Program-made: the position numbers and the translations under genes
Notes under the pieces: generated by a model
The model's database searches: none
What the model saw: only the letters and a program-made list of their open reading frames with translations
What the model was told of the DNA's origin: nothing
Assembly (NCBI GenBank): GCA_000004985.1
Contig: GG739285.1
Source of the DNA: Naegleria gruberi
Lineage: Eukaryota
Reading direction: 5' to 3' (one strand)
DNA length: 2,161 bases
Part shown: positions 1 to 2,161 of the stretch, piece by piece
Numbering within the stretch: position 1 is the first letter of the stretch
Layout of the letters: every line of letters begins with the position of its first letter

Positions 1-325
1 AAAAGTCATTAAGATGTGCGCCCCGTTGTGAAATGATTTATTGTGTAGAGTTTCGTTATTTATTTGATTACTTTTGGGTGTGACTGGAATATTGTTTGGT
101 AAATGTTTGATTGGTATTATTACTATTGGAAACAGACGGAGTGGTTGGTCAACTTGGTTGTGTTCTTTCATTACTTTTTGACTTTTGATTCATATGAACA
201 AGATCTTGTTAGACCACTACTGGTGCTTGACTGGTTATTGTTCACTAACTTTTTCTTTTGCTTACTGATGGAAATTCTGAAGAATCAGGAAAATGATCAG
301 AACTTGCACAAGACTATTTGTTTAA

Positions 326-331
326 TTTATT
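326..331 (-). promoter_or_regulatory. Putative polyadenylation signal AATAAA for the kinase gene
   Basis: The minus-strand AATAAA lies ~46 nt downstream of the TAA stop in an AT-rich flank. More AATAAA copies occur further downstream on the minus strand (around plus ~35-65). Hexamer presence only; no transcript evidence. Confidence 0.3.
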
Positions 332-376
332 GTTATACTATTTTACATGATTAAAATACATTTAAACTATACAATT

Positions 377-844
377 TTAAAGAAGAATAAAAACATTAGA
401 GTTCTTATTCATTCTATAGTTATTGTAAATATCAACAAGGAGTTCCAATAATTGACTGTGAATTTCCTCAAAAAGTGGTCTTTCAGATACTTCAGTAGAG
501 AGACATTTGGAACCAATTGAGTATAATCGTTCTGCTTGGGACTTGTTCAAGCATTTAAAGGTTGTCATCAATTCATCAATTGTAATGAACCTCTTCAAAT
601 GGGCCTTTAGGTCAATTTGGGAAGTTGGGGATGGAGGAGTAACTCCAAAGAATTTTAAACATCTTTCTGTAAAGGCCTTTCCACTTCCACTTCCATTAGT
701 GTTAGAGCTTTGTGTTTCCAATGGTTTAGCTGCTTGAAGGATCTCATTCATCGTCACACCAAAGCTGTATATATCAAATTTTCTGTAATCAAACTCAAAC
801 CCAGGTTTGAGTGTGCCTTCTTTTCTCTGAACTAATTCTGGCGC
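377..844 (-). CDS. Terminal coding exon of a split Ser/Thr protein-kinase gene (kinase C-lobe; ends with TAA stop at 379..377)
   Basis: Read in the frame of minus ORF 377..865, starting at codon GCG (844..842). Translation: APELVQRKEGTLKPGFEFDYRKFDIYSFGVTMNEIL... This contains the APE motif (subdomain VIII), D-I-Y-S-F-G (subdomain IX) and ...ERPLFEEI...L (subdomain XI). The exon start is fixed by the acceptor AG at 846..845 (minus). The stop TAA is followed by an AT-rich 3' flank. Confidence 0.85.
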   Translation of the reverse strand, partial: APELVQRKEGTLKPGFEFDYRKFDIYSFGVTMNEILQAAKPLETQSSNTNGSGSGKAFTERCLKFFGVTPPSPTSQIDLKAHLKRFITIDELMTTFKCLNKSQAERLYSIGSKCLSTEVSERPLFEEIHSQLLELLVDIYNNYRMNKNSNVFILL

Positions 845-888
845 CTTTAATATTGATGAAACCAAACACTTATCTTATAGATACTTAC
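845..888 (-). other. Spliceosomal intron (44 nt, phase 0), GTAAGTATC...ATATTAAAG
   Basis: The minus strand reads ...CATTATATG|GTAAGTATCTATAAGATAAGTGTTTGGTTTCATCAATATTAAAG|GCGCCAGAATTA... Removing it joins the two ORFs in frame and regenerates the G-T-x-x-Y-M-A-P-E activation-segment motif. A TAA at 849..847 lies inside the intron, which explains the ORF break. Confidence 0.9.
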
Positions 889-1791
889 CATATAATGGGA
901 TGTTCCTGAAGCAGTTGCTGTTGTTGATTGATAATTATCAACTTGTTCTGAAACGTTAAAATCAGCAATTTTTACATCACCAACAAGCTGCAATCCATTC
1001 ACATCAACCATGTCTATTAAGATATTGGAAGGTTTGATATCGTAATGGATGATTTTCTCCTTGTGCATATAATTCAAAGTATTGGCACACTTTACAAATA
1101 CCATCAGCAGTTGATATAATTTACCAAAACTATTATTTCCAAATTCAGTAATTCGACAATTTTCCAATGAGAAATCCATTAATTTCAAATACAAATGAAA
1201 AGATTCAGATGTTTGCTCCTTGTGTACAAGATCAACTGTTCCATGATGCGAGTTCAGTTTTTGAAGGATTTCATATTCGTGTTCTCCAATTTTAACATCA
1301 CTGAATACCTTCTTTACCACATTATTATCACCAATCTTTCCTTTGTAAACTTTGCTGCAGAGAATGGCCTCTTGTTCAAATTTCTTGCTACCAATATCTA
1401 GATAGGTTCTTGGAGTGAGTTTTACAAAAGGAAATAGGCTGTATGCAATTGATTCAGAAAGATTGTGGGCAAGGTATTGTTCGTAAAATAAATATCCATC
1501 TTGTTTCTTGTGGGAGAGAATATACGAAACTGGACTGATCATGTCATAGGGCAAAGTGTATGGTCTCTTGACATACATCAAAAGATTTTCAAAAGCAAAC
1601 TTATAATTAAAGAATTCTGTCACTAAAACAGATGGATCAAGAAGTACCTTCTCCCCTTTCTTGGTGGACATCAATCCGTATTCAGAAATAGAGAATTTGT
1701 TCGACAGGTGCAAATCATACATGATAGCTTTTGCAAGGAAAAGTTTCACAAAATTATAGCTCGACTTCTCCCATGCTTTCTCTAACAGAGG
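889..1791 (-). CDS. Large internal coding exon: linker region plus kinase N-lobe through the activation loop
   Basis: A 301-codon open frame, open from 1797 and modelled from 1791. It encodes VYKGK-type beta-strands, VVKK (VAIK-like Lys), EHEYEILQKL (helix-C Glu), HKEKIIHYDIKPSNILI (catalytic loop), VKIADFN (DFG-like) and SGTSHYM. It ends in phase 0 directly before a minus-strand GTAAGTAT donor at 888. The 3' boundary is high confidence. The 5' boundary (acceptor AATAAG|, AG at 1793..1792) is model-based. The first in-frame ATG is at 1722..1720. Confidence 0.8.
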
Positions 1792-1884
1792 CTTATTTCA
1801 AATCATATGAATAATGTTTCGTTTGTTTCTAATACTTACAACCTTTTGAAGAATTTATAACTATACCAATAAGCGCAAACTTAC
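1792..1884 (-). other. Intron (93 nt, phase 0) linking the second ankyrin exon to the kinase exon. It contains an internal GTAAGT at 1839..1834 and a possible 3-nt micro-exon GTT (1842..1840)
   Basis: The donor is AACATG|GTAAGTTTG at 1884. The only acceptor that enters the kinase reading frame in phase 0 is AATAAG| (AG 1793..1792). Intermediate acceptors (TATAG| at 1861, CAAAAG| at 1843) lead either to an in-frame TAA or to a 3-nt exon followed at once by a second GTAAGT donor. Both the 93-nt intron and the 42+3+48 arrangement preserve the frame. Confidence 0.4.
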
Positions 1885-1971
1885 CATGTTGGAAATCATA
1901 ATATTGGTATGACTGAGAAGGCTATGAACAACTGATTTGTGATTATTGTAAAAGGCAACACTCAATGGATT
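1885..1971 (-). CDS. 87-nt phase-0 exon encoding one ankyrin-like repeat unit
   Basis: The minus-strand segment is open in only one of three frames: NPLSVAFYNNHKSVVHSLLSHTNIMISNM. It fits the ankyrin core pattern (T/N)PL..A....H..VV..LL. It is bounded upstream by the acceptor ...CTAAC...AAATTAG| (AG 1973..1972). It is bounded downstream by AACATG|GTAAGT (donor at 1884). It is exactly 29 codons long. Confidence 0.55.
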
Positions 1972-2020
1972 CTAATTTCAGAGTTGTTAGAAATATTACT
2001 CAGAGATCAGTAACACTTAC
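1972..2020 (-). other. Spliceosomal intron (49 nt, phase 0) with a CTAAC branch-point motif
   Basis: Minus strand: GTAAGTGTTACTGATCTCTGAGTAATATTTCTAACAACTCTGAAATTAG. It has a perfect GTAAGT donor. The TTCTAACAA branch-point-like element lies 14 nt upstream of the AG. The flanking exons are each open in exactly one frame and join in phase 0. Confidence 0.6.
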
Positions 2021-2107
2021 ACCAATGTTCACGTCAATAGTTTCTGAACTCAATAATAATTTTACAATAGTATCACTTCCAATTTTACTAGCAGCAACCA
2101 GTGGTGT
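2021..2107 (-). CDS. 87-nt phase-0 exon encoding one ankyrin repeat unit
   Basis: Minus-strand translation: TPLVAASKIGSDTIVKLLLSSETIDVNIG. This is a close match to the ankyrin consensus TPLH.AA..GH..IVKLLL...D.N. It ends with a complete codon immediately before GTAAGTGTT (donor at 2020). An in-frame TAG at 2110..2108 forces the exon start to 2107 via the TTAG| acceptor (AG 2109..2108). Confidence 0.55.
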
Positions 2108-2152
2108 CTAATATTCTGTAAAGAAAACTGTTTTTATGGATTAGCAACTTAC
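2108..2152 (-). other. Candidate 5'-most intron in the window (45 nt), GTAAGTTGCTAATCC...TTTTCTTTACAGAATATTAG
   Basis: GTAAGT is at 2152..2147 (minus). The pyrimidine-rich tract and TTAG| acceptor lie immediately before the ankyrin exon. The upstream exon cannot be confirmed. In phase 0 it would read TGA CAG TCA, with the TGA at 2161..2159 on the window edge. An alternative weak donor GTCAGT at 2156 avoids this. Confidence 0.25.
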
Positions 2153-2161
2153 TGACTGTCA

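Follow-up and report, generated by a model that had tools for sequence, protein, structure and literature searches.

Ankyrin exons probably spliced onto a divergent kinase gene on an orphan scaffold of Naegleria gruberi

Contig GG739285.1 of the Naegleria gruberi assembly GCA_000004985.1 is a scaffold of 2,161 bp, which we analyzed in its entirety and refer to as the window. It raises the question of whether two short open stretches lying upstream of a kinase exon on the minus strand belong to the kinase gene. An earlier note, made from the letters of the DNA, had proposed that they do, as ankyrin-repeat (ANK) exons spliced onto a Ser/Thr kinase. The sole annotation of the scaffold, XP_002668137.1 / EFC35393.1 (P0111), is a 278-residue 'predicted protein, partial [Naegleria gruberi]', and it includes neither stretch. 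Our analysis points to one minus-strand gene on the scaffold, and the explanation that fits best, which we hold to be probable, is a single gene coding for ANK units, a linker and a kinase, in that order.

Ankyrin units upstream of the kinase exon

Both short exons lie on the minus strand as described in the earlier note, their translations agree exactly with the two peptides quoted there, and each is open in a single frame, with stop codons in both other minus-strand frames (Table 1). Both are flanked by ...TTAG on the 5' side and GTAAGT on the 3' side, and the two introns that link them to the kinase exon are both in phase 0, also as proposed. Intron 2 shares the genomic frame of exon 3, yet it contains three in-frame stops, and the frame of exon 3 is open from position 1796, upstream of the annotated ATG. 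At the other end of the gene, removal of intron 3 restores GTSHYM|APELV, and exon 4 encodes kinase subdomains VIII to XI, with APE, DIYSFG and the conserved Arg. There is no doubt about this exon: the YM|APE motif is restored, the Pfam kinase match spans the junction and the exon aligns to the C-lobes of all the paralogues. When 2107..2021, 1971..1885, 1791..889 and 844..377 are joined they give 1545 nucleotides (nt), that is, the partial protein of 514 residues that the earlier note had assembled plus its TAA stop. The G+C content is 33% for the window, 34.6% for the exons and 26.8% for the introns.

To establish how well the N-terminal units agree with known ankyrin repeats, we used the hidden Markov models (HMMs) of Pfam with their gathering cutoffs of 21.1 bits for Ank (PF00023), 27.3 bits for Ank_2 (PF12796) and 31.7 bits for Pkinase (PF00069). 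Over the N-terminal 118 residues, both Ank_2 (29.6 bits, E=1.1e-6) and Ank (27.1 bits, E=4.7e-6, in two stretches) scored above their cutoffs. In the full 514 residues, the search that the earlier note had suggested returned Pkinase at 101.2 bits and Ank at 21.1 bits, the latter equal to its cutoff. Taken alone, exon 1 matched Ank with 19.6 bits (E=0.0011) and exon 2 with 13.4 bits (E=0.11). We also ran an independent ANK profile made from 15 units of period 29, drawn from two proteins with no relation to the window, with 200 shuffles in six frames (1,200 shuffled frames) as the control. On the six-frame translation this profile matched only the minus-strand ANK frames, with 14.2 bits for exon 1, 4.8 bits for exon 2 and 0.5 bits for the start of exon 3, the best of the shuffled frames reaching 1.4 bits. 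The ankyrin core that the earlier note had read in the two peptides is thus borne out by their motif residues, by both Pfam models and by a profile score above all shuffles.

The tandem motifs are TPLVAA…IVKLLL in unit 1, NPLSVA…VVHSLL in unit 2 and, more weakly, PLLEKA…FVKLFL in a third unit at the start of exon 3. Their period is 29 residues, with a hairpin 4 residues shorter than in the canonical repeat of 33, and only positions 4-32 of the Ank profile are covered. An exhaustive HMMER search recovered ANK proteins that match the model best over its residues 1-80. Among them is P0149, in which a unit of exactly 29 residues, with the motif xPLxxAxxxGHxEIVxLLLAxPxIDVNxG, is repeated ten times in tandem; the window's three units can be aligned with triplets of these, without gaps, at 32-37% identity. 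The period is therefore a known length variant and no ground for excluding the units from the ANK family. We also looked for other splice sites that could bring the repeat back to 33 residues: no in-frame donor or acceptor is available, acceptor 1792/1791 has a TGA two codons upstream, and other AGs imply introns of 20-24 nt. We dropped this alternative because 29-residue ANK arrays exist elsewhere.

A second GTAAGT, apparently unused, was seen at 1839..1834 inside intron 2. A micro-exon around it was considered and rejected; its intron would be only 24 nt long, and a TAA interrupts the 21-nt piece in phase 0.

The predicted structure is of the same kind. An AlphaFold (AF2) model of residues 1-91 has a predicted local distance difference test score (pLDDT) of 88.8 and shows one helix pair per unit, namely residues 2-9 and 12-19 in unit 1 (pLDDT 94-98), 31-37 and 41-48 in unit 2, and 58-66 and 70-83 in unit 3. 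All of the 50 best fold matches of this N-terminal model in the Protein Data Bank (PDB) are ANK domains, including those of Skd3, ORP1, RNase L, RFXANK and DARPins, with template modeling (TM) scores of 0.51-0.76, most of them 0.62-0.76; the short query accounts for Foldseek E values of only 0.06-0.4. Of the three units, the first two are short-hairpin ANK repeats, and the third, by its register and its predicted helices only, is best described as an ANK-like terminal unit.

Whether these units and the kinase belong together is informed by four N. gruberi paralogues (P0001, P0113, P0262 and P0112), in all of which ANK or ANK-like sequence precedes the shared linker and kinase. They show the same order of parts as the window and are 28-38% identical to it over nearly the full length. 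P0001 (a 'serine/threonine kinase' of 631 residues) combines Ank_2 at 26.5 bits with a kinase, P0113 (XP_002674929.1, 506 residues) Ank at 24.5 and Ank_3 at 25.6 bits with a kinase, and P0262 (XP_002671040.1, 474 residues) Ank_2 at 26.0 bits with a kinase. The BLASTP alignment of our model to P0001 covers residues 48-507, starting within exon 2 and crossing the exon 2/3 junction, and a MAFFT multiple alignment placed exon 1 of the window on the ANK repeats of P0001 and P0113. In addition, 23 codons are open upstream of ATG 1722, reaching back exactly to the phase-0 acceptor 1792/1791. These codons form helix 1 and part of helix 2 of unit 3, are in register with 29-residue ANK arrays and match the second ANK of P0001.

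We were able to read the gene structure of two paralogues in metagenome contigs of the European Nucleotide Archive (ENA), L001 and L003. Contig L003 is 100% identical to P0112 (XP_002674560.1, 452 residues). Its stretch 1..140 holds an ANK exon that the annotation lacks, NPLKVACRNCDIEIVKHLINAPSIKIDPSIS (nt 1-93; Ank, 19.3 bits), and then GTATGT with a phase-0 intron of 46 nt. The large exon begins after this with KEILEHVEKNVRKEMDLNSLLL…; the position of this intron is equivalent to that of intron 2 in the window. The Joint Genome Institute (JGI) model of P0112 begins at the Met of MDLNS and has lost the ANK exon in the same way as the public model of the window gene, so its annotation also appears to be N-terminally truncated. 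Contig L001 is 97% identical to P0262 and has, at 130..353, an ANK-like exon recognized by eye, GEAPFEIAKTNNFTKIMRLLIAHHLIK, a 54-nt phase-0 intron and then the large exon; the ANK-like peptide had no Pfam match at E<=1. The exon is absent from the JGI protein P0262, and may have been skipped in that model. L001 comes from metagenome run ERR1078381, whose sample therefore contained a Naegleria closely related to N. gruberi. In the paralogues, as in the window, the ANK exons are set off from the large exon by short phase-0 introns.

The HMM scores, the repeat register, the predicted fold, the four paralogues and the intron position shared with L003 all agree with the proposal that ANK exons are spliced onto a Ser/Thr kinase. 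Read from the DNA in this way, the ANK exons and the kinase would probably form a single spliced gene for an ANK-kinase protein.

The public annotation is, by comparison, a truncated gene model. The exhaustive HMMER search showed P0111 to be 100% identical to residues 82-359 of our model; it ends at the exon 3 donor, contains neither the ANK exons nor exon 4, and thus omits 81 N-terminal and 155 C-terminal residues of the 514. Its start codon falls within helix 2 of unit 3. Being flagged as partial and lacking exon 4 as well, it offers no reliable guidance. A gene starting at ATG 1722, the outcome that the earlier note had itself foreseen as contrary to its proposal, is found solely in this partial computer annotation, which cuts unit 3 in half.

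Table 1. Features of the 2,161-bp window, listed in the direction of the gene.
Feature	Position	Strand	Residues	Remarks
Possible upstream exon (its final 9 nt) or stretch of a longer intron	2153..2161	minus		TGA CAG TCA in phase 0 with the GTAAGT donor
Candidate intron 0	2108..2152	minus		45 nt, GTAAGT...TATTAG; perhaps the 3' portion of a longer one
Exon 1 (ANK unit 1)	2021..2107	minus	1-29	87 nt; one open frame; translation TPLVAASKIGSDTIVKLLLSSETIDVNIG
Intron 1	1972..2020	minus		49 nt, phase 0, GTAAGT...CTAAC...TTAG; read-through meets TGA after 6 codons
Exon 2 (ANK unit 2)	1885..1971	minus	30-58	87 nt; one open frame; translation NPLSVAFYNNHKSVVHSLLSHTNIMISNM
Intron 2	1792..1884	minus		93 nt, phase 0, GTAAGT...ATAAG
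Exon 3	889..1791	minus	59-359	ANK-like unit 3, conserved linker, kinase N-lobe and catalytic core to GTSHYM
ANK-like unit 3	1696..1791	minus		Start of exon 3; sequence PLLEKAWEKSSYNFVKLFLAKAI…
Annotated start ATG	1720..1722	minus		Start used by XP_002668137.1
Protein kinase domain	455..1353	minus	205-489	Pfam Pkinase; interrupted by intron 3
Intron 3	845..888	minus		44 nt, phase 0, GTAAGT...TTAAAG; junction 889|844
Exon 4	377..844	minus	360-514	Kinase C-lobe; TAA stop at 379..377

Kinase domain, linker and insertion

The kinase match (E=8e-29) covers profile positions 14-259 of 263 and crosses junction 889|844, and in the full-length model the domain has a pLDDT of 80-95. The catalytic loop HYDIKPSN (1047..1024) holds the catalytic Asp, D309, together with K311 and N314, its DIKPSN core corresponding to residues 309-314 (nt 1041..1024). 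The beta3 Lys is K219, in VVKKV; the metal-binding Asp, D335, stands in DFN at 963..955, and APE is found at residues 360-362. Throughout the alignment of the paralogues, D309, N314 and D335 do not vary. The window and the N. gruberi paralogues have in common a loop of the form H-Y/H/N-D-[IL]-K-P-x-N and the replacement of the DFG Gly (DFD/DFN/DFS).

In the classification of Hanks and Hunter, the catalytic loop of Ser/Thr kinases reads D-[LIV]-K-P-x-N and that of Tyr kinases D-L-A-A-R-N or D-L-R-A-A-N. Judged by its motif, the loop of the window is of the Ser/Thr type and not of the Tyr type. The earlier note had called the kinase 'Ser/Thr and TKL/STE-like'. DIKPSN upholds the first half of this, while the second is a loose description only, as the neighbors mix TKL, STE20, AGC and TK kinases. 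A sequence search of the PDB returned STK32A (AGC), TNIK, SLK and STK10 (STE20) and IRAK4 (TKL), with E values of 1e-11 to 1e-9, and a fold search returned IRAK4, TNIK, PAK1, ABL and CTR1, all at about 1e-11, with no kinase group standing out. P0115-P0118, the next-best matches after the paralogues, are not close relatives, because several kinase domains inflate their scores.

The domain departs from the canonical form in its N-lobe. The glycine-rich loop GxGxxG is missing, the window reading AILCSKVYKGKIG where P0112 reads ILGKGGYGTVFKV and P0262 reads LGNGANGAVYSV; P0112 and P0262 both retain the motif. The region corresponds to residues 200-212 (1330..1368, minus strand), where the MAFFT alignment has a 6-residue gap, and the Pfam match starts past this loop. 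P0001 and P0113 are likewise without a canonical glycine-rich loop, which makes the loss a family trait rather than a mark of decay in this copy. Since the kinase is also of the non-RD kind (HYD), its activity may be atypical or weak.

Between the ANK units and the kinase lies a linker of about 120 residues (82-204; 1354..1722, minus), which is conserved among N. gruberi paralogues only. It carries the motif YILSHK…EEY…AYS, was modeled with low confidence and had no Pfam match.

We also observed a Ser/Gly/Pro-rich insertion of 38 residues in the kinase C-lobe (residues 403-440; 602..715, minus), TQSSNTNGSGSGKAF…PPSPTSQIDLKA. Its pLDDT is below 50, and P0001 does not have it. Because it shows no splice signals, it is probably a coding, disordered loop.

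Weighing a single gene against other readings

Several results weigh against a single ANK-linker-kinase gene. The ANK scores are at or close to the Pfam cutoffs, Ank_2 over the full-length protein falls under its own (25.3 against 27.3 bits), and unit 3 alone has no Pfam match. The AF2 N-terminal model leans towards the ANK fold because its input alignment was built from ANK sequences, and of the ANK units in the full-length model, from a six-sequence alignment, unit 1 alone is confident. The only public model has its start at ATG 1722, exon 1 has no ATG, and the sole GTAAGT upstream of it (2152..2147) yields TGA CAG TCA, with an in-frame stop at 2161..2159. The paralogue proteins are themselves gene predictions. 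No protein spanning the junctions was found among 5.8 billion, a query with the N-terminal 183 residues having matched the annotated fragment only, and an exact search of JGI metagenome contigs did not contain the spliced-junction 24-mer. Finally, with the glycine-rich loop lost, the kinase may or may not be catalytically active.

Two further searches were negative: an exon-1 26-mer was missing from the JGI metagenome contigs under the same exact search, and an exact look-up of the read-through open reading frame (ORF) 1722..847 gave no record.

The best placed of the alternatives, improbable as we take it to be, divides the locus into an upstream ANK gene, which would end by reading through the exon 2 donor, and a separate kinase gene that would start at ATG 1722. 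The corresponding read-through ORF does exist (1861..1965, …ISNMVSLRLLV, stop at 1863..1861), and both the annotated start and the failure to find the junction would suit such a division. The 23 codons upstream of ATG 1722 argue against it, as they stay open to the phase-0 acceptor, continue the 29-residue register and align with an ANK repeat of P0001. The paralogues, furthermore, hold ANK and kinase in one protein, the intron that links the ANK exon of L003 to its large exon occupies the same position, the public model that supplies the start is partial and also without exon 4, and the spacing between the two genes would be only ~140 nt.

Slightly less probable again is that the ANK exons are an untranslated 5' region or a decaying relic, translation starting at an internal ATG (1899..1897, 1887..1885 or 1722). 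Such a reading would account for an exon 1 without ATG, for the in-frame TGA produced by the best upstream donor, and for ANK scores that are marginal in exon 2 and absent in unit 3 alone. It sits poorly with two 87-nt exons that are open exactly in the ANK frame while their other frames have stops, and with ANK core residues (PL..A....VV..LL) retained well above the shuffled controls. The TGA itself hinges on one donor choice in the last 9 nt of the scaffold, and intron 2 shows that an internal GTAAGT is possible within an intron of this gene.

Least likely of all, the whole locus could be a gene copy without function, or something left over from the assembly on an orphan scaffold, in keeping with a scaffold of only 2,161 bp whose end cuts the gene, with a protein found in no other assembly, though ERR1078381 contigs match two paralogues at 97-100%, and with the deleted glycine-rich loop, but at odds with four open exons, with three internal introns that have canonical sites in phase 0, and with the retention of K219, D309, N314 and D335, the last three of which are invariant across the paralogues.

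A single ANK-linker-kinase gene must still account for the 5' end. Acceptor TAG|ACA, at 2108/2107, is the only one that leaves the ANK frame open. A stronger-looking acceptor, TTTACAG (ending at 2116), was tried and rejected, with a TAG in the ANK frame and stops in all three frames within 18 codons. The in-frame TGA may be explained by use of a weak GTCAGT donor at 2156..2151, which reads xTG ACA and is open, by an unused GTAAGT lying inside a longer intron, as is seen in intron 2, or by a base error at the end of the scaffold. The paralogues have 50-70 residues ahead of the equivalent repeat, including a degenerate N-cap-like unit (e.g., ILQVVEDGNVAELLKF in P0113), and by analogy one further repeat unit upstream of exon 1 is plausible. 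The true N-terminus of the protein lies beyond the scaffold end (2161).

On the opposite strand, the window has a plus-strand ORF at 103..354 that codes for 83 residues rich in Trp, Tyr, Phe and Leu (MFDWYYYYWKQTEWLVNLVVFF…) and ends 22 nt from the kinase stop codon. It had no Pfam match; a convergent gene for a membrane protein might have its last exon here, or the ORF could be due to chance. No RNA family was found in the window with Rfam.

Known ankyrin kinases and the Naegleria family

The product of the gene would be a soluble protein in three parts, with an N-terminal stack of at least three 29-residue ANK units, the first two each on its own 87-nt phase-0 exon, then the linker of about 120 residues, and a divergent Ser/Thr-type kinase. 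As it does in other ANK-kinases, the ANK stack would act as a protein-binding module for recruiting, localizing or regulating the C-terminal kinase, and the kinase itself might have constitutive but weak or atypical activity, or serve partly as a scaffold.

Combinations of ANK repeats and a kinase are well known, from TNNI3K, ILK and the ANK-TKL kinases of plants and Dictyostelium to RNase L, and, in reverse order, RIPK4 and ANKK1. TNNI3K and the plant and Dictyostelium ANK-TKL kinases have N-terminal ANK repeats followed by the kinase, the same order as in the window, and the likeness extends to the Ser/Thr-type loop and to structural neighbors that include the TKL kinases IRAK4 and CTR1. The linker of the window is, in contrast, specific to Naegleria, and no specific sequence relationship to these proteins was found, the best solved relatives mixing STE20, TKL, AGC and TK kinases. 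ILK has an N-terminal ANK stack and a kinase-fold domain with unusual features at the ATP site; it is without the catalytic Asp and acts as a scaffold. Unlike ILK, the window retains K219, D309, N314 and D335, and ILK is not among the best 60 of the 887 solved-structure sequence matches of the window. RIPK4 and ANKK1 are RD-type kinases with the kinase at the N-terminus and the ANK repeats at the C-terminus, which is the opposite of the window, with ANK at residues 1-90 and the kinase at 205-489.

With respect to the repeats, the closest likeness is to the short-hairpin ANK arrays of P0149 (910 residues, from a Logan assembly) and P0249, which have the same unit length and the same motif, xPLxxAxxxGHxxIVxLLLxxPxIDVNxG, as the window. 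Proteins of this type have at least 10 units and no adjoining kinase, whereas the window has about three, of which units 2 and 3 are degenerate. Within N. gruberi, the window is a distinct and unique copy with no relative at 50% identity; its three 29-residue units are consecutive, while the Pfam matches in the paralogues span one or two repeats.

The domain combination is ordinary, ANK plus kinase being already annotated for paralogues in the same genome, and the finding is mainly a gene-model correction. Three points are new: the gene model of one orphan scaffold is corrected, ANK exons appear to be under-annotated in this Naegleria kinase family, and the repeats are of the 29-residue type, with a symmetric exon for each. 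When the literature was searched for an earlier description of ANK-kinases as a family in Naegleria, nothing specific came up. Several family members, including the window gene, have lost the glycine-rich loop but retain the catalytic residues. A broader idea, which we advance tentatively and consider rather unlikely as a whole, is that of a fast-evolving, Naegleria-restricted ANK-linker-kinase family, with 29-residue units on symmetric phase-0 exons, whose members are atypical or regulatory (pseudo)kinases and whose N-terminal ANK exons the reference annotation systematically omits. If this were true, the symmetric phase-0 ANK exons would be easy to duplicate or shuffle.

An ANK module ahead of a kinase is a familiar means of kinase targeting and regulation, and current understanding of such proteins is unchallenged by the gene described here. 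For the organism, since XP_002668137.1 and, seemingly, XP_002674560.1 miss their ANK exons, the domain counts of the Naegleria kinome probably under-report ANK-kinases.

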